Positions 11,931 through 30,122 of a stretch of DNA of 64,000 nucleotides are shown one piece after another. The notes beneath the pieces are model-generated. The model was not told where the DNA came from. It worked only from the letters and a program-made list of their open reading frames with translations, and ran no database searches. Position 1 is the first letter of the stretch. Each line of letters begins with the position of its first letter. Source of the DNA: a virus; the IMG/VR virus record IMGVR_UViG_3300027972_000001, positions 28,169-92,168 of that record. One strand, 5' to 3'. Made by a program: the position numbers and the translations under genes.

Positions 11931-14900
11931 CTATCCTCGGAAAAGTATATAATACTTATTGGTTTTGTTTATTCGTTGCATCTGTTGTATTTTATTCCAA
12001 ATCGGCACTAACTTAATAGCATTAACTTTAATTTTAAGTTCTTTTGCATATGCACCAGTAACATATCTTCTTTCCTTATCAGTTTGGAAAGGATAGCCAA
12101 CAAGATTAGATATTAATTTATAAGTATCAAGTATAGTACCTTGTACAGCAGCAGGAGATTTTAACATCTTTTGACCTTCATTTATAAGTCCAAATGGAGT
12201 AAACATCATTACTTCACTTAATAACTTATCTATTTCATAAACACTTAAATCATAAGCAAAGTTTTCATCATCATCATCATCAGGTTTAAGATTCTTTAAT
12301 ATAAGTCCAACAACAAGAACTGTAGCAAGATAAATATGATCCAATACGGCTCTCTTAACATTACCTTTTTCAAAATCATCTAATGTATTCCAATAAAGAC
12401 CAATATTAGTAGCAAAATGATGCATATCTTCAAGTATTCTACCCATCATACCATGAAACTGTTTAGCTTCATCAACATCTAAATATTTATGTCTACTAAA
12501 TGGACTTGCTAAAAACTTAAATAAACTAACATATGCTCCCTTATTCCATTCATCTCTACTTTCTGTCCAAAAACTCTTCCAAAATTTAGCACCAAATCTT
12601 TTATTCCAACCAGGACGAACATGTTTTTTAAATTGCATACCCATTCTACCTATAACCCATCTACTTATAGTAGCAGCATCTTCTTTATTATAAATACCTT
12701 GTTGTTTTTGAACTACTTTCAATGCTTTAATTCTAAATAAAGCATATTCATTATCATCTAATTTAGTATTATATTTCTTTCCATCTATTTCAATTTCATC
12801 TTTTAAATCGGCATAACCATCGTCATTTAGATAAAAAGCATCAATAAGTTTAGGATTAGATTCAAAATTAGTAAAAGTAGTCTTATCTAATTCTTTTTTA
12901 GCTTCAACAAATGCATTTCCTTTTATTATAGGGAGATTTAGTATAAAATCACGAAGATAATCTTTTTTAGACTCTTTAAATTCTTCTTTTTTATATCTTT
13001 CTTTTAAATATTCAGCTAAACGTGTTTTTTCAGTATCATCAAGTATTTTATTTAAAGCATCTATATAATTTTGCTGTTGATATTCAGCTAAAGACATTAT
13101 TTTACCATTAATAATTCTATGATGATCTAACATAGATAAAGTACTAACATTCTGCATATAGTGTTCACCTATATCATTAAGAAAATAAGCAGAACTCCAA
13201 CTAAGTAAGTTAGATTTTAACATACCAGTTGTAAAGTCACGTTCATTAGTATTTTGAGCAATATTAAGTTTCTTAATAATTGCATTAGTTAAAGTTCCAG
13301 CTTTAGTGCTTCCTAAATTAATAAGCATATCAGGAATAGCACTCATATACATTTTATCTGCCTTAACTAAATTATTATGTTTAAAATACCATCCAGCAAA
13401 TGCTTCCAGCTGAACTTGTATTTTACCAATCATAACGTTATTAATACCTGCTGTAACATTAAACCACATATTTTTAGCAGATGTAAATTTAAGTAACATA
13501 TTACCAATGACAGTCCATGCACCTTCATCTATATCAAAATTGCCATAAAATATAGCTTCAAGCCATTCAGCAAAATGTTGTTCAAGATTAGTACCTTCTC
13601 CACCAGTAGTTCCTATTACCTCTTTATCTAATGCTTTACTACCAGCTTTATTTTTAAGAAGTTCTCTTTTACTATTTCGTTTAGTAAATTCCATATTACG
13701 TATCTGATATAAACCAAGATCAAATTCATGTTTCATATCAGCTTTTACTTTATACATAGTAGCTTCTCTAATAAATTGAGAAAATACTTCTCCAAGATTA
13801 TAATTTATTTTACCAGCGTGTTCTTCATCATTAAGTTTTCTAATTCTCTTATTTTCAACATATATAGCACCAAGAGTATTAAATTTACCTTTTCCTGCTA
13901 CAGCAACATCTTGAATAACTCTTCTTTCGTAATCACTTTCTAATTCATCTTTTTCTTTAGGAGCAATCTTAATTTCTTCAGTAGTTCCAAAATAATTTAC
14001 CATAGGAACAGTAAGAAGATAAACCATTTCATTATTTTCTCCTACAAAACTATCACTTTGTTTTCTAGCTTTATGGATATCAATCCAATGTTTAACTTTT
14101 TCAGCAATAGTAATATTTTCCTTTTCCTCATTACTTAAACTAGGAATAAATCCTCTATTAAGAATAGTAGCTTTACCAAAATAGTCAGTATATTTATCAA
14201 TTATTTCTACAAACTTTTGATAAAGTTCATCATCTTTAATAGCAATCCAAGCTGGATTAAGATATTTATCAGAAGGAACAGACAGTAAACTATCACTTAC
14301 TAAAAATTGCATTTTACCATCATATTCTCTAACATTACGATATTTCCAAGCATTAAATTCAGGAGTACTTAATTCTTCTTGTTTTCTACGAACTAAGTTA
14401 TTAAATTCTTCCTCAGTTATATTTTGAATTTCATTATCTCTATACCATGCATCTCTACCATTATAATAACTTTGACTATTTCTACCATAAGTCTTAATTA
14501 AATATTTAAATTTAGCATTTTTATCAGTATAGAATTTATCCCAATCATATTTTTGAATAAGTTTACCTGTAGGTTTACCATTTTTGCGTTCAAGATACTT
14601 ATTAAAATCAGCAGTTGTTAAACTAGTAATATTACGTCCACCAAAAGTTTTTCTTAATAATGCTTCAAACTTACCAATTTCTTTACTAGATTCATCTTCA
14701 CCATTTGATACTTTTACCATATATTTTTTGACCATTAATGCAGCAAAAGCATTATTAGTATCAGCAAGTGAATCAAGTTTTAGTTGAATAAGATTTTCAT
14801 CATCACCTATATCTATAATTCTTCTAAGACCGGCAACTATTTCAGGATTCTTAGTATATTGGTAAAGATCTCGTTCTTCAAAATCATTCCATAATTTAGC

Positions 14901-17900
14901 AACTTTAGTTTCAACATTTTTAATACTAGGAATTAAGTTTTGAAGTTGTTTTATAAGATCATTAATTACTTTTTCTTCTTCAATAAATTCATTTCCATCT
15001 ACAGATGTTAAAACATCAAACGAAGTTACCCCTTTAATAAAAGAAGTTGCCCATTTAATAAAGCCGGTAAACTCTTTTCTAACAACAGGATCACTAATAA
15101 TAACATTCATATCCATATTTTCAAACTCCTGAACTCTAGCTATAATACCACCTTTTCTAGTTTCAGTTTTAGGATCATTAAGATCAAAATCATATTGTTT
15201 AAGAACTGTAATTAATCCTTTAGCAAGATTAGCCAAATCATTTTGACCTATAAGTTTTTGAAAATTTTTATCATTTAAAAGATTGGCAGCATCACTAAGA
15301 GTTCCAGCTTTCTTAAATTCTTTAAGAAATTGTATTCTATTAGCATAACTAGTAGTAGTTTTTTCTATGAATTTATTAGCAGAATCAATAGCATTATTAA
15401 TACCTTGATTAGTAGAAGAAGTATAAGAAACAAACTTAATATCTAATTGTCCTTCTTTTTGAGTTTCATTGAGAATTTGTGCTAATGCTCTAGCTTGATT
15501 AATATCACTAGTAGCAAATTTATCAGTAAGTATTTCATTTTTAACAAGAGATCTTAATTCCTCAATTAGTTCTGGATTTTGTTTAGCCCATTCTCTCCAT
15601 CCATCTAAATAATATTGCCATTGTTGTTCTCTAGTTATATCTGTAAGTGCTGGTTTACCTTTACCCTCTTTAATACTATTATATCCTTTAATATCAATTT
15701 GATAATGTTCTTCAATTGACATACTACGCATTAAAGTACTTAATTCTCCAGTGGTATCACTAACTTGCATTAATTTAGCTCCTGGTTTTAAAATAGCATA
15801 GAAAGCACTAAATCTTTTGTCTCCAGCACTAGATACTTCATATCCTCGTGTACTAAAACGTGACCAATTATATTTATTTTCAATTATAAGTTCATTATCA
15901 TCTTCAGTAACTTCTCCTTCTTCACTAATTCCAGTATTACTATCTTTCATTACATCTTGTAAAGTACCAATATACTCATATTCAAACTGAAATAGATCAG
16001 TTCTTTTTTCAAGAGGATGTGAAACAGTAATATCCCAACCTTCTTTCTTACTCCATTCTTCTCTAGCAGGAAGAGAACTAAGATCAATATGAGTTAATTT
16101 TTTAGTAACTTTTACATATTCATCAGTTCCTTTAAGTCTAATATATGTTCCAACTTTAGCTAATTCCCATTTCTGAGCTTCTCCTGTATCAGCATATCTA
16201 GTTGTAGCAGTTCTTTCTCCTGCTCTAACTAAATCTAAAGTACTATTATATTGTTCTAATCCATCTCTGAATGCATCATGAGTTCTAGTATAACTCATAG
16301 GAAGTGGTTCTTTATATATTACTTCATTAACTTGTCTTTGTTTTTCAAGAACATTAATTATTCCAATATAATCATCGGGACTTTGTAATTCACTTCCATT
16401 GAAATCTTGATTATTATCTTCAAATACACTTTGCTCTTCATTTTCAGAATATTCAAGTTTATTTATAGGATAATAATAAAATACACCAAATCTATTGCCA
16501 AATGTATCTACATTTACAAAATTATCATATCTTTGAAACAATTGATATTTAACTCCATCTTTAGTTGTTTTTCCTAATTTTATAACTTGTCTTTCTTTAA
16601 CTCTATTGGCTATACGACCAGTAGGAATATTATCAAGAGTTTTAGCAGGTATAGATATTATACCTTGTTTATTTACTTGAAAATATCTAACTTTACCACC
16701 TGTTGTTCCATCTTCATTTTGTGTAGTATTATCTATATATTTTAATCCACTTGCATCTGGAACAATTTTATCTTCTGTCCAATGAGATTTAATATATCTT
16801 TCTTTATAGTTACTATTAAATATAAGTTGGCTACCAGCATCTAAATCTGCATCTAAATCTTTTTCATCAAATAATAAACGATTTACAAGATTTAATTTTC
16901 CATATAAATGAGTACTTAATCCAATACCTTTTTCATTATAACTACCTTCCATAAATGGTTCATTACCATAATAGAAAACAGTATTTGGAATTATTTTACT
17001 AAATGAACTAAATCCAAATCCAAATCCATTAGTAATATATTCATATTTAAGTAAATTTCTAGCAACAATTTTTTCAAGTATATTTTCACTATACCAAAGA
17101 TCATTAAAAGATTGACTTACTTTATCTAGATTCTCATTATTAATATACTCAACTTTATAATGACGATTACGTTTTAATTCTTGTGCTTGTGTACTAACTT
17201 TTAAACTATTAATAATATGATTTTCATCATATTTAAGTTGATCATGTAAAAGTATAATTTGATTAGCAAGACTAAGTTGTTCAAAATCAGTAATACTTTC
17301 AGGATTTTTTAAATCTAAATTTAAATTTAATTCAGTATTAATACCAAGAAGAGTTCTTTTTTCTTCAATACTAATATCATTTAACCAAGGAAGATCTTTA
17401 AGTAAACTATTATTTAAATAACTAGTAATAGATTCAGCTAATTTTTTATCATATTTTTTATCAGTAACATAATCATTTAATTTACTTTTAATAAATCTAT
17501 ATAATTCACTTTGACCAATAAAATATTCTCCAAATGCTTTGACACTTAATTGATTAGAAAATATAAAAAATTGTTCAAGAGTAGGATAAACACTTGGTTT
17601 AGTTAAATTAAAAAATTTAGGAAATATTTGGTGCATAGCACTTGTATCATTTATTTCAAGTATACCTACCTTTTCAGTTCTATTTATATCAAATTCAAGA
17701 GAATGAGTAACATCAAATGTAGGTCCAGCACCTAGAGTATCAGTATTCAATACATGAGTACCATCAGTAATTGCATCTGAATATGCTTTATAATGTTTAA
17801 AAGTTTCAATAATTTGAAGTTGGTAACGAAGATGATTTTCAATTTCTTTAAGTCTATTAGTATCTGGATTTTCACTTGCAAGAATATCATTAATTTCTTG

Positions 17901-20900
17901 CATATTACCAAAATCATCTAACGTAACTGTATTTACATTGTTAAGTAATGTTTCATGATTTAATGTAATTCCTAAATTATTTTTATAACCTAAATAGTCA
18001 TATTGTTGATTTCTAACTGCATCTTTACCGCCAATAAAAATTGACTGTTTATTATTAATCTTTTCATCCCAACCTTTATTATGTTCTGCATCACCTTTAA
18101 TCATTACACGATATAAAAGTGTTTGAAATTTACGTTTAGTTTGTTCAATTTCACTACCACGTTTAACATTATTTAAATTAGCAAATAAAGTATTAACAAG
18201 ATCATGTATAATAGGTTGATTAATAAATGCTGTACTTACTTTAAATGTAGAACCTAAACTAACAAGCATTTTCCAAATATTAACAGTATATTCATTAACA
18301 TTTCTTGGAAGAGGAAATGCTACATTATCAAGAATATTTGCAGTAGTTTGTGCTGAATATGAACTTATGAGTTGTCCTTCAACATTTTTAAAAGTATTAT
18401 TAGGATTATTATTAATAAATCTATGAGTTACTATTGCATATTCTTTAGTATTATTTGTAGTGCCTCTAGTTTCAAATCTAACATCTTTACCATAATTTTC
18501 AATAAGTTGTTTTTTCTGTTCAGGATTAACAATATATTCAATAATAGGTAGAGTAATGTTATTATTTATATTATTTTTTTCATCTTTGAGTCTTTCTGTA
18601 AGATGTATTCTTGCAACTTGAGCAATAGAATTAAATCTATCTGATGCTAAACTAATACCTTTCAAATCTCTACCTTGATGTGATTTATCTCTATAATGTT
18701 GCTGACCATCAAAAGTAAGGTTATTAACTCTTTGATCAATAACATTGAATTTTTCATCAATCTCTTTTTTAGATTCAGTAATAGATTTAAAGTTAGATGT
18801 AGCTATAGTTTCTGCATAATGATATTTATTAGTTAAAATACCATAATATATATTTAGAATTTGATTTTCTCTAGCTTTTCTAGTATTTTGTTCAAGTATT
18901 GGTAAAGAAGATATAATTTCTTTAACTCTAGCTTTCACATTTATATATTCAACTTTATCTTTAAAATATATATATGCTTCATCACTCATTATTTGAGCAA
19001 ATACTTCAGCTTTTTCTAAATATAATGCTTTCTTCTCTTTACCTTTAGCTTTACTAATTCTTTTATTTATAGAATCAATTTTATCAAATTGCGGTTTATG
19101 TTTTTTATTAACTTCAGAAGTTTTATCAAGACTATCATAATATTCTTGTTTAGCTTCATCTAATGAAGTAACTATATCAATTAATTTATCATTATTTAAT
19201 TTAAGAGCTAGTATATGAACTAATTGAGAATGATCTTCCATTATAGCTTGAGCTCTACTATCAAGATTATTATCTTCTGTATAGGGAATACGTTCTACAG
19301 TATATATAGAAGTAGGTTTATTATCAACTATTTCAGTAGTTACTTTAGTATGCAAATTATATATAAATGCATATACATGATCCATATCAAAATCAGATCC
19401 TGTTTGAGTTACAAAATCATCAGGAAGAACAATACTTGGACCATTATCATCAGGAAGAAAACCAACAACTTTAAATACATAAGCACTATATTTGGCTTCC
19501 ATAGGAATACGATAACCAACCATAGTTCTAACTTCATCAGATAAAGTATTTATATCAACATATTCTCCATCTTTATAAAATTGTTTTGCCCATCTTGGAA
19601 GTAATACTTCAGCTTCTTGTACCATTCCTTCTTTTTCATCAAAAAGAATAGTAGAACGAAGTTTAATATCATTACGATTAATAACTTTACCAGCAGGATT
19701 AGTTTTAACACCTACGCTTTTGTGCCAGTTAATTCCATCAATAGATTCAAGATCTGACCATTTAACACCTTGTTTCTTATTCATGAATAAACTAGACATT
19801 TGAGCACCATGAAGTCCAGGAAACTTCTGGTTAGTTACACCATTAGTAAATAATGATGTAAGAATATGTTCACATTGAGCACTTTGAGTATTAAAGAAAA
19901 TAGGAACTCTGGAATCACCAGTATCTCCAATTTGAACACTAAATAATAAGTTTTTACTTAAATTACGATCAATTCCTTCTTTTTCAAGAATATCTACAAT
20001 TACATTATAATCTATATCACCTATAATATTTCCATCTTTATCAACTCTAACATCAAATGGTAATAAAGTTTTAATAGCACTTTGAAATACATTACTATTA
20101 ATAAGTTCAAAGTAATGATTTTTTAATTCAACGCCATTTAAAGTTTTACCATTGACTATATAATCAACACCAGTATCAGGAATATTTTCTATTATTTTTT
20201 TAGCAAATTGTCTACTTAAAGTAATAGTTTCTTCAAAAATAGCATCAGGAACTTCTAATTGCATACGTAATCCTTCATAATTATAATTACGTTTAGCTTT
20301 AATAAGTTCTTTTTCTAAAGTATCATCGTCTACTATATTACCATCTTCATCAGCAATAGTTGCAATATATAATGAACCAATTTTTTCAGCACTTCCAAGA
20401 TTTATTTGAGGAATATCTAATTTTATCATTATCTTATTAAGACTATCTAGTTGAAGATCTTTAATAAGAGCTGGTGTTAATATAATCTCTGCATTCTTAA
20501 CTTGAGTGGGAATCATTTTTTGTAAATCATCATTACGATCTATACTATAATAAAAGTTCTTTTGCATAGATGCAAAACGCATAGTATCTTCTCTATTTAA
20601 TTCTCCACCATTTCTAACTTTATTTAAAATAGTAGAATACTGTTCAGTTAATCCAAATCCATGAATACGTTTTTCAAATTCATCAAAGGTAACAAATGAT
20701 ACAGCATTAGCACTATCATTAGATAGATATGGAGAAACTAAATTGTATATTTCTTTTTCTTCAGGTCTAAATAATGTCTGTTCTTTATCATTAATAACTA
20801 TTTTATTAGTTGATAATTCTTTATCAGTATAGATTTTTTCAAGTCTACTAATACGAACTTTATCTTTATTAATATTAAGAGCATAAAGTAAAGTATTAAT

Positions 20901-23900
20901 TTTATGTCTATATATTTTAGATTTTAATTTAACATCAGAAATTGTTGCTCCAGAATAAAATCCTTTATGTACACTTGGAATACCATTTGCGATAATTTGT
21001 CTACCACGTTTATTTAAATCAATATTACTCTTGTAGTCAGCTACACTACCATAAAATAATCTAACTTGTTCTACATTAAAAAGATAAGTATTAAGAGCAT
21101 ATTCAGCAATAGCATTATTAAAATTTTTATCTTTTAATATAAATGTTTTATCTTCTCTACCTACATTCTCTTTTTTAACATATGCTGTTGTTAAAAAATC
21201 TTTATATACACTTAATTTTTCATCAGCAATATTAATTTGTTGTGAAATAAAACGTAATATAAATTGTTCTAATCTATTTTTAAAGGTAGAATTAGGATCA
21301 CCTTCAATAAGTGGAGTATGAATAGCAGAATTTAAAGAATTAGATAACATTAAATATTTAATAAAATTAGTGTTATTAATAAAAATACTATTAAAAGTAA
21401 TTTGTTTATTACCCATAGTAACAGTAAGATTATTAATATCAAAAATGTTGCCACTACTTGTTGTATCTAATCTATAAGTTCCGTCTGTATCTTTAGTGAA
21501 AGTTAAATATTTCTTAACACCATCTTTAAGTTTATAATGATAAAATAATTGTCCAGATTTAACATCATTTTGAAATTCTTTTTTAAGTACAAATCCAAAA
21601 TTACCATCATCAATAGCTTTACCATCTTTAAGTTCAAATAATACTTGTTTTGCAGTATTCATTGCTATTAGTTCATCAATAGCATTTAAATATATTGCTT
21701 TAAAAATTGGAATTTCTCTTACTAATTCAAGTGATTTATTAATATCAGTTTCTTTTTTAGCAAGTAGTAATTTAGTATAGTCTACAAAATTTAATTCAAT
21801 GATAGGTGCTTCAAATAATCTAGTATTTTTTCCATCTGAAGGATTTATCATTGGAAAAATAGCTGTAAGTTTTTCATTAACTTCTTTTTTAGTAGTAATT
21901 TTACCACCACCAAAATAATAAATTAAATTTCTTAATGTCCAATCATATTTAGTAAGTTTATGATATTCAGTAGCAATTCCCTCAGTAAGATCTTTGGTAC
22001 CACTATATCTAAAACTCTTAAAATTACTAAGATTAGTAGTATTTATAGTAGTTGCTTTTCTTATTCCGTCTACTATTTTATAATCAAATATACCTCTACC
22101 TTTCTTAACAATTTCATTATCTATATATTCATCCCCCCATAAAAGAAGAGAGTGTTGATTAGATAGAATTGTTGTATAATTAATTAGAGCATTATAAACA
22201 CTATCATCACCACCTTCAAGTTTCTTAAAGAAATTACTTAAAGAATCTGGTTTATTAGCATCAAACACTAAATTACCAGTAACATTTATATTGCTAAAAC
22301 TGAAATGATCTTCTCTAAAATATTTAACTTTCTTAGCTAAACGAAGAAGATTACCAAATTCATTAAATATTGTTTTAGGTGTGGCTTGTAATCTATCAAT
22401 ATAAGGTGTTTCATATAGTTTATATTTTACTCCAGGAATACCTTTAATATTACGAAGTGGAGTAATTATTCCATTAATAAATTCATTTCTATTGTTTAAA
22501 TATTCATAATTAATACTATCTAAAGTAATATCAATTCCAACTAAATAATATAATTGAACTATATTAGCACCAATTTCAGGATCTAATTTAGTAAAATTAG
22601 AACTAAGTGTTGCAGTTTCTTTATATAATTTATCATAATTTTCAATCCAATCTTTATCATAAAAATTATTTTCACCTCTACTAATAATTAAATTAGCCCA
22701 TTTATCAGCGATATGATATTCAACTGCATTTCTATTAACATTAGTTAAGGTAAGTTCTGTAGTTTCATAATCTCCAGTATAGTCAGTTCTAATTAAATCT
22801 CTATATGAATCAATAATAGCTTTATCAAAAGATACAAACCAAGCATTAAGTAAATCTGGATTATTACTAAGTTCTTTATGAATACTATATAAACTTTTAG
22901 CAAATACACTTTCTTTATTAGTAGCATAATTAAATAATGCGGTAAGCATATCTTCTTTAGTAAGACAACCACGCATTAAATCCATTATCTTATTTCCTCT
23001 TTCAGCATAAACAAGAGTATTAGCAAAACCAGTAGGAGTATTAGTATTAGTTCTCCATATAATTTTACCATCTATTATTTGAATACTATTAGGATCTAAT
23101 TCATATGTTTTATTAATAAGATTTTTAATTTGATCATTTACTGTAATTAAAGGGTTAACAATAACTACATCACTACTATCCCAAGATTTATCAAGTAATT
23201 CAACATCTTCTATATACTCTTCTTTTTCATTTATTTTATAACCATATTGATTACTTAAATGAATTCTAAAATATTTCCAAAATCTATCATTACTACTAAG
23301 TTCTTCAAGAACTTTAGTAATAAGAACTTTTTGATCATAAGTGAGAGTGCCTTCATTTTTACGAAGAGTAGCTTGTTTAGCTAGTTCTCTAACTAAATCA
23401 CTTCTAATTGCATTAGGATCAATATCTTTACCTTTAACTCCTTTATAAGAAGCACTTACTTTTTCAATAAATAAGTTACTAAGAACATTAAGAACATTAA
23501 CTTCTTGGTCTAATTCAAATGGAGAACCAGTAAGTTCTTTATTAACAGTAGAAGAATAAGAAATTGATTTAACATCTTTTTCAGAAATTATTGTATGAAT
23601 TTGTTCAGGTTTGAATACTATATATTCTTTTATTTTTATATTAAGATCTGTTGTGTTTAAAATTATACTGTCATATCCTTCTCTTTTAGCTCTTTCTATT
23701 ACTTGTGGTTTAGTTTCTTTAATATTAATACTTGGAGTGAAATCTTCTATTAATGGATTAATGATATTTAATACTACTTCAGTAATAAAAGGAGTTCCTG
23801 CTCTATATTCAGACATTTTTTTAGCATGTTCTATAGAATCTGAAAAGAAAAATCCTTTTGATATATATTGTTTATTTTCTGTAAAAGTTTTTATTTCTCC

Positions 23901-26900
23901 TTCTGGACTACCATGATAAAGAATATCTTTTATTTTGCTATCTGGAAAAATATTATTTAATTCATTTTTAGTCTCACTAGTAAAACTAACTATAGGTTTT
24001 TCAACAGGTTCATCTTCTGCAAATTTATCAAGAATATCATCATATTCATCACGATTAGAAACTTCACCTAATGTTGTTTTATCTATAGTACTTTTAATAT
24101 CTCCACCAGTAATAAATTGTTCAAATATATAATTTAATTCATCAAGTTTAGTACTAATGCCAAAAGTTTGTGCAAGTTCTCTTATTATCTGTTTTAATTT
24201 AGCCCAAAAACTAGTAGTAACTTTACCTTCAGTAGTTTTAACTGTATCAAGAAATTTAGCAAAATCAGTATCAGTAAGACCATATGTAAGAAGTTCTTCA
24301 ACATCTTTCATATTTAAAATGCTGATTAATTTATTTTCTATTTCAGTTCTATCTTTTTTCTCATTTAATAATTTATATTCAGGAGTAGTAAATAAATCAG
24401 ATTTAAATTTGTTAAGTTGTTCAATTAATTTAGTTTGTTCTTCTTTACTTCTAGTTCCAACTAAAGCATGTATAGTATCATGTACTAAAGCAAGAGTTGC
24501 ATCAACTTTATTTTTCTTATATAACTCAACCCAGGTTTTAGTTACTGTTATAGATTTATTAGAAGGTGTGTAATACACCATAGATTTTCTACCAGTTTCT
24601 TTATCAGTTTTAGTAACATCTAATGCACCATTAAATGTAATTTTACCACTTTTAATAAAAGTATCAAGAATTTTAAATATAAAGTCATATCTTTTATCAA
24701 ATTCATATTCACTACTAAATTTAGCAAAACTTGGAGTTTTAGTAACATTGGTCTTTAAATGACTTGTATCTATATTTACAATTAAAGGTACACCACCAAC
24801 ACCATCATATTGAGATAAAGTGAAATTACTAATCTTCTTACCATTTTTATCAACTAATTGTCCAACATCTGTAAGAATAGTATTACTACTAATTAAATAT
24901 TCTTCATATGAATTGTGTTTATTACCAAGAATATCAGTAAATATATTTCCATCAAAATAATCATAATTAATATTTCTTTCAAGAGAACCTAATTCATCTC
25001 TAAATTCTCTCTCATTTATTGGTTTAGTTATTTTAGTATTACCTTCAATACGTTCGTATCTAAATTTATTATTATAAAAATCATAAACAAAATAAGTTCC
25101 ATTACTATTAAATCTAATATCTCTATTAGTAACCATTAGAACATTAAAATGTTCTTGTTCATGTTGAATATTGATAATCTTTTTAAGTTCTGTAATTATA
25201 TTACTTGCAGTAAGATTATGTCCCTCAACAACAACTTGATCATTAATTCTAAATGCTTCACGAGCAAGTGCTTGTGTTTTACCAAGTTCAATAATTAAAT
25301 CTCCAATTTTTTCATGTAATTGTTTAACATTATCATCTTTAATTAAATTACTATCAATGCTATTTAATTTTATTGGAACAGGAGTAACTTTACCACTTCT
25401 ACCTACAACCCCAACAAGAAAAGAAGATGCAAATGTTGGAATAGTTCCTTGTTTAGTTATAGTTTCATTCTTATCTCTAGTATTTTCAATTACAGTTTTA
25501 TTAGAATTATTTTGTATTTTAAATAATTTAACTTTACTAGGATTATCAATTACAGAAAGATTTCTATATTTAACATTTCCTTTCTCATCTTTACTTTTAA
25601 CTAAAGTTCCATCAGTAATATATGTAATTTTACTTTCAACAATTTTATCAATATCTATTCCAATAATTTCTCTAAGTTTAGTATTCTGAATATGATCTCT
25701 AGTAAGTTTATCTTTCCAACGAACTATATTTGCAATAATTTCATTTCTTCTTAATTCAATAGGAGTAACACCATCTGTATTCTGTCCATAAAACATAACA
25801 CGAGCAATATGAGTAAAAGCTTTCATACCTTGCTCACTTCTAATATCAATATCTCTACCTACTAAATCATAAAGAAGTTCACGAATATCAGCATCTATAA
25901 GTTCCAAATATATTCTAGAAATAGTAGTCTTGCTTTCATTCATTTTTTTAGCATTAAAAAATGTTTGAATAAGTGGGAGCAATCTACCAATATATTCTAT
26001 TTTATTATTACTAGTACTTATATCATTAATTATAACGTCTGTCCAGTCTTTACCATTAAAACGATACTTAACTCCGGCATGCATACCACTTAAAGTACTG
26101 ACTGCAGCAATAGGAGTACGTTTATTTCCACTTATTGCTTCAATTATAATAGGTATAGTTTCTTGGTTATTCTTATTTTGGTTGAACCCCTGATCTCCGG
26201 ACAATTCAGTATTGACATGGGCAACTACCTGTGAATTTTCAGCCAAAGAGTTCAAAAGAGCATTAACACGTTCAATATCTTTATCATCTACAACCTGATC
26301 ACCATTATCATTACGAGTAGTTTCTAAATTATAAAGAAATGCTCCTAATACTTCTTCACCACCAGTAGGAGTTACATTATTTATATTACTAATTTGAGCT
26401 TCTTTAAATTCATCTTTAAGTCCATAAGATTCAATAATCTTATTAACATCAGTCTTTTTTAAATTATCATCAGTATTATAAATACGTTTCTGACCTTCTT
26501 CACCTATTTTACTACTTCTAATAATACTATACGCCTGTTTAAGATATTCAAAATCTTCTTTTAATCTTTGAACACCAACTAGTTTACCATATTTAGCAGC
26601 AATAAGTTCAAATTTAAAGAATGTACCATGTTCTGCAGATTCAACAAATAAAGGAGTACCATCATTTATAATTCTAGTTATCCATCTATTTGCCCTTGCA
26701 ACTATATTTTTTGTTATGGGGTTTTGGGAAGTAAAATCAACAACAGATAGAGTTAAATCAGTAATATTAGTAGATTTATCTGTAAGTTTAGAGATTTCTG
26801 CATCATATTTAGTATTAATTTTAGCTTTTAAATATTTTTCAGAAATTTCTATTGCTTTATTTAGAGCAGTTTCACGATTTTTTTCTAGTTGTTGTAAATT

Positions 26901-29900
26901 TTTATCATAAATAGCACCTTTATTAGCTCCAGATTTTACAAAATATTCATCAAATTCAGTTTTTGCTTTTGTATAATCATCTATTAAATCTTTTGACATA
27001 CCACTTTTTAAAGCACTTTCTATATTAAATAATGTGGTTTTTAATTCTTCTTGTCTACGTTTTTCAATATCAACTATTAAACTAGAAAAATTATTAGATG
27101 ATTCTTGTTTATACGCTTGTTCTTTAATTTCTTTTTCTATTTCATCTAATTCTTTGCCATTCAATGCAGATTTAAATTCTTCAGCATTATTAATATGTTC
27201 TTGTGATTTATTACTTCCAGTAGGAGTAGTTGTTTCAGTATTAGTTATATATCCAGCAATAACAAGAAATTCATTTATAAATTCTTCTATTACATTTCCT
27301 TTAGTAAGAGCATTAAACATATTATTTAAAGCATCTCTTAACTGATTTCTAGTTGCCTGACCATACATATCAAATAAACTAGGATCAGATAACATAGCAA
27401 AGAAATCACCAATACTATTAAGTGTATTAGGATCTGTAGGTTTTGCTATTTCTTTAAGAATAGTATTTGCAAAATGTGTACTACGTTTTCCAGTGAATTG
27501 ACTTTTAACACCTACAACACCTAACTTAAGAAAAGCATCAGATAATTTATTAACAAGTGCTGTATTTTTGACTTCTACATTACTACTACTTTGTTCATCA
27601 GCAATCATTAATGTTTTTTGATTTACTAATATACTTCTTCTTTTTTCAAGAACATCAATATATGCTTCTAATCTATCTTTATTTAATTTCTTAGTAGGTT
27701 TAGCTTCAGTAACAAAAGGATCTAAATTATCTTTTTTAAGTTGTTCTAAAGTATCATCAATAACTTTAATTTTAGCATCCATTGTAGAACTAGTATCTAC
27801 TTTAGGATCTACTTTAGTATTCTCACCTATTTTAACTCTAAATGTCTCAAATTGTTTACTATATTCTTTATCAGTTTCAACTTTAAGTTTATTCTCAATA
27901 GTAGGAATACTCTTGTTAGTATTCATTACTTCTTCATATAAACTATTATCAACATGAAGAAATAATTCATAAACTTTAGCTTCTGCTTCAGCTTTTATAA
28001 TATCATTAATAGAATCAAAGTCACCTACTGCTTTATTATCTCCTAACTCTTTATCATGAAGTTTAAATTCATCTTTATATTGCTTAACTTTCTCTTTAGC
28101 AATATTCTTAGCAATTGGATCACCCCACTCTTCTACTTCAGTGTCAAGATATTTAATAACTTCAGCATTAATAAGATTATCTAAAGTTCCCTCAAAATCT
28201 TTATCTTTATTTTGTTCTTTAAGAGCATCTAAAGCTGGATTATTAGTTCGTAAATTAGTTGCTCTTTGTTTAGCATTATTACGCAATTTAGTTGTTTGTT
28301 CAACTTCAAATTTCTTATTTATTGCTTCATTAATAATGAGATTTCTTAAATGTGGTTTACTACTTGTTGCAGTAAATATTTTGTTATATGTTGCTTTAAA
28401 AGTATGTTCGGCATCAAGAATATTCTTTTTAAGACTGACTAAATCTTTACTAAAATTAACTTCATCTGTCAATCCAAGTTCAATCATTTTCTTTTTAAAT
28501 CCTTCATGTTCAACCATCTCAAGTAATGAATTAATATTACCTGAAAGTGAAGCATTAAATCCAAGATCATATCCTAATACTGTTTTGACTCTATCAATCA
28601 TATCCTTTTGAGACTGTTCAATAGTTTCTTTATCACCAACAAAAGGAGTATTAGTATTTATATTAATTCCTTTTTGAATGTCACTAATATTATTAGCACG
28701 ATTAGCAAGTTTAATATATCTATTTTGAATTTCACCAATCTTCATTTCAGTACTATGAGGATCTTTGAAATCATTAATAGTTTCTTTTATAGAACCAATA
28801 GTACGTGCACCACCACTGAATGCTACACCACCAGCAAATCCCCAAAATGCTTGTTCCCAACTACTAGGATCTTGAAGATATTCATGTATTCTATCTACAA
28901 AATCTTTATCTTTTTCACTACCTAATAGATGTTTACCATACCAATTAGCATCAGATTGAGAAATAGCATTTACAAGTTCTTCTACTCCTTCTGTCATTTG
29001 CTCACCAACTAACACAGTTCCCCCCTTAAAAAAAGAAGATGCGTTGAAACGTGGTTTAGTAATAACGCCAGGTTCTAATATATTAGCTTGTGCAGCTTTT
29101 ACTTTAGCACTTTCTAGCCAACCTGCAGTTCTAGTTTTAACTTTAAATCCTTTAAATATTGGAGCAAGTTGCATTGCATCAAATATAACATTGACTGCAT
29201 TCATACCATAATCTTTCCATGCTCCTTTACTAGCTATAAAATTAGCAAGTTCAAGTTTATCTGGAGTTCTACCTTCTGCAAGAAACTCTTGTCCAACTTC
29301 AGAATTTAGAACTTTTTGATATTCTTCATCATCTTGAAATAATTTAAATGCTTCTTCTTTAAGCGTATTAAATACTCCACTAGCTTCTCTCATATTTTCT
29401 GCATTACGCATAGCAATAGCAGAATGAGTAAGACCTTGCCAATATTTTTCAGTAGCAAATATATCAGATGCAGCAATAAATGCTTTAGAAACACCTGTCA
29501 TTTTATTAAGTCTACTAAGTGCAGCAATTTTTTGAAGTCCTTTACTAAAATAACCAGCAGCTTTAGCTTCACCAAGTGCAGGAATTAACATTCCTAAAGT
29601 ACTAAATACACTAACAGCATTGCTAGTCCACCATCCAAAATCTTTCCAATCAAATGATTTACCAGGATTATATCTAAATATAGGAGTTTTATTTCCTAAT
29701 TCTTCGGTAATATTATCTGCAAATTTAGTCATAAAATTACTAAAATCTGCATCTCTTCCTGCTATTTCATCTGCAATAGCATCAGGTAATTCCAATAACC
29801 CACCAACACCACCAATAACTCCTTGAGCAAGTATTTCTCCTATTACACCTTGACTAAACATATTACCTACTTTACTCCAAGCAGATTGATTCTGAGCAGC

Positions 29901-30122
29901 CTGACGTTCTAAATTAACATTAGGATATATTTCATCTATAAAACGTTTATATTTATCACTATTTGGCTGGTATAAACTTAAATCAGAACTAATATTATTC
30001 ATATTAGTATCAATCTTAAATTTACTATTAATTGGTGCTATTTTTTCAACACTTTTTGGAGTAACAGTAAGAGAAGGATTAATCTTTAACCCTTTATTAA
30101 TAGGAGTAAGTTCGTTAGTCAT
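11931..30122 (-). CDS. giant virion-associated RNA polymerase polyprotein (crAss-like), 6063 aa
   Basis: Two-barrel RNAP catalytic loop GSDFDMD (19380-19400) preceded by VGYRIP; zincin-like HDTIH; position after muzzle and cargo genes as in crAss-like phages. Confidence 0.92.
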   Translation of the reverse strand: MTNELTPINKGLKINPSLTVTPKSVEKIAPINSKFKIDTNMNNISSDLSLYQPNSDKYKRFIDEIYPNVNLERQAAQNQSAWSKVGNMFSQGVIGEILAQGVIGGVGGLLELPDAIADEIAGRDADFSNFMTKFADNITEELGNKTPIFRYNPGKSFDWKDFGWWTSNAVSVFSTLGMLIPALGEAKAAGYFSKGLQKIAALSRLNKMTGVSKAFIAASDIFATEKYWQGLTHSAIAMRNAENMREASGVFNTLKEEAFKLFQDDEEYQKVLNSEVGQEFLAEGRTPDKLELANFIASKGAWKDYGMNAVNVIFDAMQLAPIFKGFKVKTRTAGWLESAKVKAAQANILEPGVITKPRFNASSFFKGGTVLVGEQMTEGVEELVNAISQSDANWYGKHLLGSEKDKDFVDRIHEYLQDPSSWEQAFWGFAGGVAFSGGARTIGSIKETINDFKDPHSTEMKIGEIQNRYIKLANRANNISDIQKGININTNTPFVGDKETIEQSQKDMIDRVKTVLGYDLGFNASLSGNINSLLEMVEHEGFKKKMIELGLTDEVNFSKDLVSLKKNILDAEHTFKATYNKIFTATSSKPHLRNLIINEAINKKFEVEQTTKLRNNAKQRATNLRTNNPALDALKEQNKDKDFEGTLDNLINAEVIKYLDTEVEEWGDPIAKNIAKEKVKQYKDEFKLHDKELGDNKAVGDFDSINDIIKAEAEAKVYELFLHVDNSLYEEVMNTNKSIPTIENKLKVETDKEYSKQFETFRVKIGENTKVDPKVDTSSTMDAKIKVIDDTLEQLKKDNLDPFVTEAKPTKKLNKDRLEAYIDVLEKRRSILVNQKTLMIADEQSSSNVEVKNTALVNKLSDAFLKLGVVGVKSQFTGKRSTHFANTILKEIAKPTDPNTLNSIGDFFAMLSDPSLFDMYGQATRNQLRDALNNMFNALTKGNVIEEFINEFLVIAGYITNTETTTPTGSNKSQEHINNAEEFKSALNGKELDEIEKEIKEQAYKQESSNNFSSLIVDIEKRRQEELKTTLFNIESALKSGMSKDLIDDYTKAKTEFDEYFVKSGANKGAIYDKNLQQLEKNRETALNKAIEISEKYLKAKINTKYDAEISKLTDKSTNITDLTLSVVDFTSQNPITKNIVARANRWITRIINDGTPLFVESAEHGTFFKFELIAAKYGKLVGVQRLKEDFEYLKQAYSIIRSSKIGEEGQKRIYNTDDNLKKTDVNKIIESYGLKDEFKEAQISNINNVTPTGGEEVLGAFLYNLETTRNDNGDQVVDDKDIERVNALLNSLAENSQVVAHVNTELSGDQGFNQNKNNQETIPIIIEAISGNKRTPIAAVSTLSGMHAGVKYRFNGKDWTDVIINDISTSNNKIEYIGRLLPLIQTFFNAKKMNESKTTISRIYLELIDADIRELLYDLVGRDIDIRSEQGMKAFTHIARVMFYGQNTDGVTPIELRRNEIIANIVRWKDKLTRDHIQNTKLREIIGIDIDKIVESKITYITDGTLVKSKDEKGNVKYRNLSVIDNPSKVKLFKIQNNSNKTVIENTRDKNETITKQGTIPTFASSFLVGVVGRSGKVTPVPIKLNSIDSNLIKDDNVKQLHEKIGDLIIELGKTQALAREAFRINDQVVVEGHNLTASNIITELKKIINIQHEQEHFNVLMVTNRDIRFNSNGTYFVYDFYNNKFRYERIEGNTKITKPINEREFRDELGSLERNINYDYFDGNIFTDILGNKHNSYEEYLISSNTILTDVGQLVDKNGKKISNFTLSQYDGVGGVPLIVNIDTSHLKTNVTKTPSFAKFSSEYEFDKRYDFIFKILDTFIKSGKITFNGALDVTKTDKETGRKSMVYYTPSNKSITVTKTWVELYKKNKVDATLALVHDTIHALVGTRSKEEQTKLIEQLNKFKSDLFTTPEYKLLNEKKDRTEIENKLISILNMKDVEELLTYGLTDTDFAKFLDTVKTTEGKVTTSFWAKLKQIIRELAQTFGISTKLDELNYIFEQFITGGDIKSTIDKTTLGEVSNRDEYDDILDKFAEDEPVEKPIVSFTSETKNELNNIFPDSKIKDILYHGSPEGEIKTFTENKQYISKGFFFSDSIEHAKKMSEYRAGTPFITEVVLNIINPLIEDFTPSINIKETKPQVIERAKREGYDSIILNTTDLNIKIKEYIVFKPEQIHTIISEKDVKSISYSSTVNKELTGSPFELDQEVNVLNVLSNLFIEKVSASYKGVKGKDIDPNAIRSDLVRELAKQATLRKNEGTLTYDQKVLITKVLEELSSNDRFWKYFRIHLSNQYGYKINEKEEYIEDVELLDKSWDSSDVVIVNPLITVNDQIKNLINKTYELDPNSIQIIDGKIIWRTNTNTPTGFANTLVYAERGNKIMDLMRGCLTKEDMLTALFNYATNKESVFAKSLYSIHKELSNNPDLLNAWFVSFDKAIIDSYRDLIRTDYTGDYETTELTLTNVNRNAVEYHIADKWANLIISRGENNFYDKDWIENYDKLYKETATLSSNFTKLDPEIGANIVQLYYLVGIDITLDSINYEYLNNRNEFINGIITPLRNIKGIPGVKYKLYETPYIDRLQATPKTIFNEFGNLLRLAKKVKYFREDHFSFSNINVTGNLVFDANKPDSLSNFFKKLEGGDDSVYNALINYTTILSNQHSLLLWGDEYIDNEIVKKGRGIFDYKIVDGIRKATTINTTNLSNFKSFRYSGTKDLTEGIATEYHKLTKYDWTLRNLIYYFGGGKITTKKEVNEKLTAIFPMINPSDGKNTRLFEAPIIELNFVDYTKLLLAKKETDINKSLELVREIPIFKAIYLNAIDELIAMNTAKQVLFELKDGKAIDDGNFGFVLKKEFQNDVKSGQLFYHYKLKDGVKKYLTFTKDTDGTYRLDTTSSGNIFDINNLTVTMGNKQITFNSIFINNTNFIKYLMLSNSLNSAIHTPLIEGDPNSTFKNRLEQFILRFISQQINIADEKLSVYKDFLTTAYVKKENVGREDKTFILKDKNFNNAIAEYALNTYLFNVEQVRLFYGSVADYKSNIDLNKRGRQIIANGIPSVHKGFYSGATISDVKLKSKIYRHKINTLLYALNINKDKVRISRLEKIYTDKELSTNKIVINDKEQTLFRPEEKEIYNLVSPYLSNDSANAVSFVTFDEFEKRIHGFGLTEQYSTILNKVRNGGELNREDTMRFASMQKNFYYSIDRNDDLQKMIPTQVKNAEIILTPALIKDLQLDSLNKIMIKLDIPQINLGSAEKIGSLYIATIADEDGNIVDDDTLEKELIKAKRNYNYEGLRMQLEVPDAIFEETITLSRQFAKKIIENIPDTGVDYIVNGKTLNGVELKNHYFELINSNVFQSAIKTLLPFDVRVDKDGNIIGDIDYNVIVDILEKEGIDRNLSKNLLFSVQIGDTGDSRVPIFFNTQSAQCEHILTSLFTNGVTNQKFPGLHGAQMSSLFMNKKQGVKWSDLESIDGINWHKSVGVKTNPAGKVINRNDIKLRSTILFDEKEGMVQEAEVLLPRWAKQFYKDGEYVDINTLSDEVRTMVGYRIPMEAKYSAYVFKVVGFLPDDNGPSIVLPDDFVTQTGSDFDMDHVYAFIYNLHTKVTTEIVDNKPTSIYTVERIPYTEDNNLDSRAQAIMEDHSQLVHILALKLNNDKLIDIVTSLDEAKQEYYDSLDKTSEVNKKHKPQFDKIDSINKRISKAKGKEKKALYLEKAEVFAQIMSDEAYIYFKDKVEYINVKARVKEIISSLPILEQNTRKARENQILNIYYGILTNKYHYAETIATSNFKSITESKKEIDEKFNVIDQRVNNLTFDGQQHYRDKSHQGRDLKGISLASDRFNSIAQVARIHLTERLKDEKNNINNNITLPIIEYIVNPEQKKQLIENYGKDVRFETRGTTNNTKEYAIVTHRFINNNPNNTFKNVEGQLISSYSAQTTANILDNVAFPLPRNVNEYTVNIWKMLVSLGSTFKVSTAFINQPIIHDLVNTLFANLNNVKRGSEIEQTKRKFQTLLYRVMIKGDAEHNKGWDEKINNKQSIFIGGKDAVRNQQYDYLGYKNNLGITLNHETLLNNVNTVTLDDFGNMQEINDILASENPDTNRLKEIENHLRYQLQIIETFKHYKAYSDAITDGTHVLNTDTLGAGPTFDVTHSLEFDINRTEKVGILEINDTSAMHQIFPKFFNLTKPSVYPTLEQFFIFSNQLSVKAFGEYFIGQSELYRFIKSKLNDYVTDKKYDKKLAESITSYLNNSLLKDLPWLNDISIEEKRTLLGINTELNLNLDLKNPESITDFEQLSLANQIILLHDQLKYDENHIINSLKVSTQAQELKRNRHYKVEYINNENLDKVSQSFNDLWYSENILEKIVARNLLKYEYITNGFGFGFSSFSKIIPNTVFYYGNEPFMEGSYNEKGIGLSTHLYGKLNLVNRLLFDEKDLDADLDAGSQLIFNSNYKERYIKSHWTEDKIVPDASGLKYIDNTTQNEDGTTGGKVRYFQVNKQGIISIPAKTLDNIPTGRIANRVKERQVIKLGKTTKDGVKYQLFQRYDNFVNVDTFGNRFGVFYYYPINKLEYSENEEQSVFEDNNQDFNGSELQSPDDYIGIINVLEKQRQVNEVIYKEPLPMSYTRTHDAFRDGLEQYNSTLDLVRAGERTATTRYADTGEAQKWELAKVGTYIRLKGTDEYVKVTKKLTHIDLSSLPAREEWSKKEGWDITVSHPLEKRTDLFQFEYEYIGTLQDVMKDSNTGISEEGEVTEDDNELIIENKYNWSRFSTRGYEVSSAGDKRFSAFYAILKPGAKLMQVSDTTGELSTLMRSMSIEEHYQIDIKGYNSIKEGKGKPALTDITREQQWQYYLDGWREWAKQNPELIEELRSLVKNEILTDKFATSDINQARALAQILNETQKEGQLDIKFVSYTSSTNQGINNAIDSANKFIEKTTTSYANRIQFLKEFKKAGTLSDAANLLNDKNFQKLIGQNDLANLAKGLITVLKQYDFDLNDPKTETRKGGIIARVQEFENMDMNVIISDPVVRKEFTGFIKWATSFIKGVTSFDVLTSVDGNEFIEEEKVINDLIKQLQNLIPSIKNVETKVAKLWNDFEERDLYQYTKNPEIVAGLRRIIDIGDDENLIQLKLDSLADTNNAFAALMVKKYMVKVSNGEDESSKEIGKFEALLRKTFGGRNITSLTTADFNKYLERKNGKPTGKLIQKYDWDKFYTDKNAKFKYLIKTYGRNSQSYYNGRDAWYRDNEIQNITEEEFNNLVRRKQEELSTPEFNAWKYRNVREYDGKMQFLVSDSLLSVPSDKYLNPAWIAIKDDELYQKFVEIIDKYTDYFGKATILNRGFIPSLSNEEKENITIAEKVKHWIDIHKARKQSDSFVGENNEMVYLLTVPMVNYFGTTEEIKIAPKEKDELESDYERRVIQDVAVAGKGKFNTLGAIYVENKRIRKLNDEEHAGKINYNLGEVFSQFIREATMYKVKADMKHEFDLGLYQIRNMEFTKRNSKRELLKNKAGSKALDKEVIGTTGGEGTNLEQHFAEWLEAIFYGNFDIDEGAWTVIGNMLLKFTSAKNMWFNVTAGINNVMIGKIQVQLEAFAGWYFKHNNLVKADKMYMSAIPDMLINLGSTKAGTLTNAIIKKLNIAQNTNERDFTTGMLKSNLLSWSSAYFLNDIGEHYMQNVSTLSMLDHHRIINGKIMSLAEYQQQNYIDALNKILDDTEKTRLAEYLKERYKKEEFKESKKDYLRDFILNLPIIKGNAFVEAKKELDKTTFTNFESNPKLIDAFYLNDDGYADLKDEIEIDGKKYNTKLDDNEYALFRIKALKVVQKQQGIYNKEDAATISRWVIGRMGMQFKKHVRPGWNKRFGAKFWKSFWTESRDEWNKGAYVSLFKFLASPFSRHKYLDVDEAKQFHGMMGRILEDMHHFATNIGLYWNTLDDFEKGNVKRAVLDHIYLATVLVVGLILKNLKPDDDDDENFAYDLSVYEIDKLLSEVMMFTPFGLINEGQKMLKSPAAVQGTILDTYKLISNLVGYPFQTDKERRYVTGAYAKELKIKVNAIKLVPIWNKIQQMQRINKTNKYYILFRG

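Follow-up and report, generated by a model that had tools for sequence, protein, structure and literature searches.

ADP-ribosyltransferase (ART) domains fused to the virion RNA polymerases (RNAPs) of N4-like phages have been proposed to act as injected effectors (Iyer et al. 2017, PMC5512222). Roseovarius Plymouth podovirus 1 carries, in its N4-like virion RNAP, the prototype of the family concerned, ART-PolyVal (PF18760; related to Tox-ART-HYD2), which was described in the same paper as having a His, a Tyr and a strand-5 Asp. In this study, we analyzed a member of this family in IMG/VR record IMGVR_UViG_3300027972_000001, a complete virus genome of 92,168 bp with direct terminal repeats (rated 100% complete). 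The stretch at positions 28,169 to 92,168 of that record (64,000 nucleotides) is called the window, and coordinates refer to it unless another record is named. The ART-PolyVal domain lies on the minus strand at 23586–23981 and forms residues 2048–2179 of a 6063-residue polyprotein, a fused crAss-type virion RNAP "transcription block". The likeness to the podovirus protein comprises the Pfam family, the set of His, aromatic and acidic motifs, and the fusion of the ART to a presumably virion-delivered RNAP within a very large protein of many domains, near a zincin-like element. The carrier, however, is a two-barrel polymerase of the crAss type rather than a T7-like polymerase of the N4 type, the strand-2 residue is Phe instead of Tyr, and the zincin-like HDxxH motif is unrecognized by Pfam. 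An ART riding on a virion RNAP was published for N4-like phages in 2017, and the gain is incremental; the additions are a clean gain/loss ART cassette on a crAss-type polymerase and its travelling with a second cassette of NADAR fold.

The polyprotein is encoded by one unbroken frame (11931–30122, minus strand), and the peptide quoted in an initial annotation of the window, which had proposed an ART-like domain at 23590–23950, corresponds to residues 2067–2176. PF18760 matched a 200-residue fragment with 51.3 bits (E 2.8e-13) and a 3000-residue half of the polyprotein with 38.4 bits, both above the curated cut-off of 31.2, and it was the sole Pfam family found across the whole protein. The match covers residues 2067–2181 (23580–23924), and a six-frame scan of the entire genome gave this single site, at 46 bits. 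All four motifs are present, namely LYHGSP (residues 2068–2073, 23904–23921), GFFFSD (2090–2095, 23838–23855), GYDSII (2149–2154, 23661–23678), and KEYIVF (2165–2170, 23613–23630), and a phmmer search of 1.84 billion representative proteins returned 326 relatives at E ≤ 1e-3. A chance motif match is ruled out by the profile, fold, and homolog searches. The proposal of an ART-like domain at this place is borne out far beyond chance, and its span was about right; the domain as bounded from the ortholog alignment and the AlphaFold core is slightly wider. It is near certain that the locus encodes a genuine ART-PolyVal-family domain, which belongs to the PARP/diphtheria-toxin-like H-Y-E/D clade.

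The AlphaFold2 model, built from a 38-sequence alignment of the ART fragment and its small homologs, has a predicted local distance difference test (pLDDT) score above 90 over fragment residues 45–170. The predicted structure shows the split β-sheet core for binding nicotinamide adenine dinucleotide (NAD+) of the PARP/diphtheria-toxin type. Foldseek against the PDB matched the catalytic domains of PARP4, tankyrase, and diphtheria toxin. A Foldseek-independent search of 48,161 representative chains returned only ART-superfamily members in its top 35 rows, including PARPs, RES toxins, 6KYF, ParT, exotoxin A, diphtheria-like toxins, Tpt1, and Arr, with scores of approximately 7–8 for H-Y-E-type enzymes versus 3.5–4 for R-S-E toxins. 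The core differs from PARPs, tankyrases, and the diphtheria-toxin group in being minimal (about 130 residues, without the PARP regulatory or donor-loop elaborations) and in its low identity to them (about 15–24%), and nothing in our data indicates poly-ADP-ribosylation. Another reading takes the RES-domain toxins as its model and holds that the domain consumes NAD+ as a NADase or phosphorylase, not as a transferase, and would thereby alter host NAD+ or NAD-derived immune signals on entry. We regard this as extremely unlikely: the sequence motifs align with PARP-type ARTs and not with RES, the Pfam family is ART-PolyVal, and depletion of NAD+ at entry resembles an abortive-infection defence of the host rather than a help to the phage.

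The fragment itself gave only noise against PDB sequences in phmmer, and the profile of the alignment gave weak (E 0.13–2), mutually consistent alignments with PARP4 and PARP10. In these weak alignments, LYHGS is paired with LYHGT of PARP10, GFFFSDS with GIYFSDS of PARP4 and GVYFA of PARP10, GYDS with GYDS of PARP4, and KEYIVF with DEFVVY of PARP4 (DDEFVVY). These pairings assign His2070 (23913–23915) to the NAD+-binding His, Phe2092 (23847–23849) to the strand-2 Tyr position, and Glu2166 (23625–23627) to the catalytic Glu position of H-Y-E ARTs. Family residue counts were taken from 279 domain instances cut out of the ART relatives, with 229–241 of them aligned in the His, Asp, and Glu columns. 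His2070, which forms the strand-1 His-Gly pair with Gly2071, is invariant in our alignment A1 and is His in 216 of 229 instances. Two residues are candidates for the acid of the triad. Asp2151 in GYDS (23670–23672) is the best conserved acid of the family (Asp in 222 of 241 instances), and Glu2166 is invariant in the six closest relatives and is Glu in 99 of 231 instances. The initial annotation had anticipated an ART fold with the terminal catalytic Glu kept, and the model, the structure searches, and the position of Glu2166 opposite the catalytic Glu of PARP4 agree with this. The R-S-E active-site motifs of T4 Alt and VIP2 (Arg, Ser-Thr-Ser, and Glu-x-Glu) were not found in the domain. The six closest sequences share 27 invariant columns, including the His, Asp, and Glu and an S-x-E-H-A motif, at only 37–45% identity, suggesting selection on a conserved function.

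Two metagenomic orthologs, P0002 (6247 residues) and P0003 (5824 residues), are collinear with the polyprotein over its full length at 55–75% identity. In P0003, the flank ...EKPI[IV]SF... runs straight into ...VSYSSTVNKELTGSPFE..., with the 132-residue ART cleanly missing between them. In P0002, an unrelated 485-residue module (residues 1921–2405) occupies the slot, and a relaxed profile search of both proteins found no ART anywhere. Since the closest ortholog lacks it, the ART is not needed for polymerase function; it is a horizontally acquired, dispensable cassette inside the polyprotein. The G+C content is flat (23–27%) across the cassette and its flanks, ruling out a compositional island. 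A recent insertion with a target-site duplication was also rejected, as the junction peptides are alike and the junction DNA is not. The flat composition and the lack of a fresh DNA duplication at the junctions suggest that the acquisition was not very recent. Neither Pfam nor the PDB identified the replacement module of P0002. Its homologs number 486, mostly in proteins of 2000–3000 residues encoded on contigs that measure tens of kb, the largest about 150 kb, and some of these proteins also carry ART-PolyVal, Zeta-toxin/AAA_33, or PD-(D/E)XK domains; it is a widespread uncharacterized polyvalent-protein module.

The carrier was called an RNAP polyprotein in the initial annotation, and this identification holds. 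The two-barrel RNAP metal-binding motif DFDMD is located at residues 3577–3581 (19380–19394, minus strand). The 600 residues around it matched 101 phage records in tblastn, nearly all of them crAss-like and annotated as "putative RNAP catalytic subunit". The best match is the RNAP catalytic subunit of a Rudgehvirus (E 9e-40), and others are p-crAssphage gp44, crAss002, and Cellulophaga phages. The motif and the homology to annotated catalytic subunits together place the protein among the crAss-type virion RNAPs. In keeping with this affiliation, the major capsid protein of the virus is 45% identical to that of crAss-like phage cr127_1 and matches the PHROG major head protein family. A PHROGs search of the ART-bearing first half of the polyprotein gave nothing beyond one weak family elsewhere in it, and almost nothing was found for the neighboring genes. 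With RNAP, ART, and NADAR-fold domains in a single chain of 6063 residues, the protein may be a polyvalent protein, a class of large virion- or conjugation-delivered proteins that bring together unrelated effector domains, typically with a zincin-like metallopeptidase; the zincin-like element here is an HDxxH motif without Pfam support.

Packaging in the virion and ejection of a crAss-type RNAP have been published for phi14:2, as cited in PMC7886860. Homology to such proteins and a position next to structural genes make the same route most likely for the present polyprotein. We propose that it is carried in the capsid and leaves it with the DNA, so that the ART would enter the host cell at the first moments of infection. 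There, the domain would draw on host NAD+ for the mono-ADP-ribosylation of a host macromolecule, which may be a component of transcription, translation, or defence, and it would act either tethered to the polymerase or after proteolytic release. We judge this chain of events, taken as a whole, to be on balance probable, and we hold it reasonably probable that the ART is enzymatically active. Under this reading, its exchange among close relatives marks the ART as an arms-race effector and not a part of the transcription machinery.

Candidate targets can be named by analogy. The host RNAP would be one, after the example of Alt of phage T4, which according to the summary in PMC5512222 is an ART carried in the particle, injected with the DNA, and active on host proteins such as RNAP. 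The initial annotation had drawn a parallel with Alt as well, and it stands as an analogy of deployment, which is how it had been framed. As a matter of clade it does not, since the domain described here is of the H-Y-E type and Alt of the R-S-E type; Alt is, moreover, a separate head protein and not part of a polymerase. A defence protein is a second candidate. Among the structural matches, 6KYF, titled only "anti-CRISPR protein" in the PDB, is presumably AcrIF11, which ADP-ribosylates the Csy complex. AcrIF11 is a small standalone phage ART produced from an early gene and not borne in the virion, and there is no detectable sequence relationship between 6KYF and the domain described here. Nucleic acid is a third candidate, in a DarT-like pairing with the NADAR-fold domain.

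Several findings weigh against an injected, active transferase. The strand-2 nicotinamide-stacking aromatic residue of PARPs is Phe2092 and not Tyr, so that the literal Tyr of the triad of Iyer et al. (2017) is absent. Eleven residues further on, at a position that is Tyr in the family consensus and in PARP4, the domain has Met2103; the closest relatives have hydrophobic residues there. Across the family, no more than about 43% of the instances have Glu in the Glu column, and a catalytic role of this Glu in ART-PolyVal is therefore not certain. In the searchable literature, we found no ART-PolyVal member with a demonstrated activity or target. The closest ortholog does without the domain, and packaging and ejection are drawn from distant relatives. 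Furthermore, phmmer of the RNAP region against PDB sequences linked it to no solved structure, and phi14:2 gp66, if deposited, was not matched; the RNAP identity therefore rests on the tblastn matches to annotated crAss genes.

Some of the same observations fit a degenerate, non-catalytic module that has kept the ART fold for NAD+ or ADP-ribose binding, for docking, or as a structural element. Under this explanation, the Tyr-to-Phe and Tyr-to-Met replacements at two nicotinamide-stacking positions, the variability of the acidic "catalytic" column in the family, and the dispensability of the domain in the orthologs would reflect loss of activity, and pseudo-PARP domains such as those of TASOR and PARP13 are indeed in the fold list. 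However, none of the His, Asp, and Glu residues has been lost, and at strand 2 the family has Phe as often as Tyr (F 102, Y 94, W 16, and H 13, i.e., Phe in about 45% of members). On these counts, Phe is a normal family state and not a sign of decay. Residues are also strongly conserved with standalone relatives that are only about 40–55% identical, and a freshly acquired accessory cassette without activity would be expected to decay or be lost. We therefore consider a degenerate module unlikely and favor the active transferase.

The polyprotein contains a second accessory cassette at residues 4750–4890 (15453–15875, minus strand), whose assignment to the NADAR fold is clear. The NADAR model PF08719 did not match the fragment at E ≤ 5 and had no match at E ≤ 10 in the six-frame genome scan. 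The only family match was phrog_9995, to which PHROGs assigns no function. Hundreds of standalone homologs of about 125 residues were found, some fused to DUF4326. P0002 and P0003 are without this domain as well and have unrelated sequence between the conserved flanks. The phage thus combines an ADP-ribose "writer" with a fold associated with removing ADP-ribose from guanine, a combination that its two closest known relatives lack.

The two cassettes might work like a DarT1/NADAR toxin-antitoxin pair (G. lovleyi NADAR, 8BAT): the ART would ADP-ribosylate bases or ends of host DNA or RNA, and the NADAR-fold domain, carried on the polymerase, would clear this mark from the phage template or transcripts. 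The presence of both cassettes here and of neither in the two collinear orthologs is consistent with this, as is the clear fold assignment. A second instance is P0073, a phi14:2-like RNAP protein with ART-PolyVal directly followed by a Pfam-significant NADAR, and a third is phage cr130_1, with NADAR 1.5 kb upstream of the ART. NADAR, moreover, replaces Macro in DarT-DarG-like systems (PMC9503650). Against a pair of this kind, 2,570 residues separate the ART from the NADAR-fold domain within the polypeptide, the ART is no DarT by sequence and is closest in fold to protein-modifying PARPs, and the NADAR-fold domain fails the Pfam NADAR model. Each domain also occurs alone, NADAR in cr126_1 and ART in cr85_1 and ctcc615, and the NADAR-fold domain could by itself counter a DarT1-type defence of the host. 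Obligatory coupling of ART and NADAR is not supported by these genomes, whereas coupling as such is possible; we consider the toxin-antitoxin-like division of labor improbable. A stricter version, in which the two domains are a co-acquired writer-eraser pair carried in on the polymerase, would put toxin-antitoxin logic into one injected enzyme. In it, the ART would halt the host by marking its nucleic acid (or RNA ends), and the polymerase-tethered NADAR-fold domain would keep the phage template or early transcripts unmarked. We consider this version very unlikely.

The origin of the ART and its recurrence in Crassvirales were examined from the homologs of the domain. The nearest relatives in phmmer are small standalone proteins of 130–237 residues with 42–53% identity. 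Neither the ART fragment nor its flanks had a close relative in scans of IMG/VR, and a scan with alignment A2 found two small viral contigs only. In a FastTree phylogeny of 147 domain sequences, the clade that holds the present ART has a support of 97 and comprises eight rows, seven from standalone proteins. The twelve crAss-type copies on the tree did not cluster, requiring 11 changes, which is no better than with shuffled labels; this distribution points to repeated independent capture, although the domain is short and the tree a quick one. The closest homolog is encoded by a standalone 196-residue gene (L001, 9848–10438; 55% identity in the best tblastn segment). Its neighborhood is bacterial chromosomal, with genes for TIM, PGK, RecJ, ComEC, a protein sorted by the type IX secretion system, a metallo-β-lactamase-fold protein, and an M50 peptidase. 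Another relative is encoded on a viral contig, next to genes for the tail sheath and tube (L003, identical to L005). In alignment A1, a conserved leader, F-E-x-N-P-E-L...I-G-T...Y-S-x-Y-L-x-T-I-F-P-x-S-K-V-K-D-I-V-Y-H-G, precedes the ART core in many standalone relatives, and some of these start with M-x-C-P-N...Y-[YF]-L-W-[DN]-K, like cr130_1 gp80. This common leader suggests that many of the "standalone" hits may be N-termini of phage proteins.

Eleven of the ART relatives share polymerase or other regions with the polyprotein, seven of them with DFDxD, and their ART is N-terminal, internal, or C-terminal. Metagenomic crAss-type carriers include P0041, P0048, P0073, and P0074, and P0073 is a relative of phi14:2 gp66 (E 2e-101) extended by the two domains named above. 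Among named phages, PF18760 was detected at the N-terminus of gp80 of cr130_1 (NC_055901.1; 89.9 bits), just after the 5801-residue gp79, at the C-terminus of a "putative RNA-polymerase subunit" of cr85_1 (MT774390.1; 83.4 bits), and at the C-terminus of an "RNAP associated protein fused to zincin protease" of ctcc615 (MH552500.1; 61.7 bits). These three ARTs belong to the same family (62–90 bits), gene block, and phage order as the present one, but they are terminal and not internal, and the present copy groups with standalone proteins. A tblastn search with the cr130_1 domain matched 66 phage records, of which 32 are named "uncultured phage cr*". The GenBank annotation of the three carriers does not mention an ART, and ART-PolyVal proteins of Crassvirales are mostly "hypothetical". 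In BFVD, UniProt already names some of them "ART-PolyVal-like domain-containing protein", e.g., in cr130_1, cr116_1, and a crAss-like virus. Our literature searches on crAss-like phages and ADP-ribosyltransferase found no paper discussing such an ART. In NC_055901.1 (L009/L015), the unannotated ART of gp80 and the NADAR-like stretch are at 13049–13483 and 15007–15375. The NADAR-like stretch (33.7 bits, with one in-frame TAG) lies near the C-terminus of gp79, which is annotated as "DprA-like".

A zincin-like motif with Asp at the Glu position, HDTIH (residues 1881–1885, 24468–24482, minus strand), is found about 190 residues upstream of the ART and reads HDTLH and HDMIH in the orthologs; other crAss-type ART-bearing proteins have HEAFH or HELIH. 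Residues 989–1120 (26763–27158) form a further 132-residue insert, absent in P0002 and P0003, that looks helical or coiled. No Pfam family and no peptidase was recognized in the zincin-like region, this insert, or an ASCH-like region. The motif [VI][SD][FY][ST]S, defined post hoc, occurs four times in the 6063 residues versus 0.073 expected, and none of 20,000 shuffles reached four. The sites are at 26727–26741, 23976–23990, 23550–23564, and 15417–15431, and three of the four are kept in both orthologs. One copy follows each variable slot (the 989–1120 insert, the ART, and the NADAR-fold cassette) by about seven residues, and the fourth stands just before the ART. At the upstream edge of the ART cassette the motif is VSFTS (residues 2045–2049, minus strand), and just past it is ISYSS (residues 2187–2191, minus strand), the latter kept in both orthologs. 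These sites could be cleavage sites or structural junctions.

ART-PolyVal is widespread, and our searches turned up no account of an activity or target tested for it; a well-folded member of 130 residues with clear boundaries is a convenient first construct for biochemistry. In animal guts and in many environments, crAss-like phages rank among the most abundant viruses. In the phage described here and its close relatives, gain, loss, and exchange of ADP-ribose-related effector domains take place at defined slots of the polymerase polyprotein, suggesting that these domains are tools of host-specific takeover or counter-defence.

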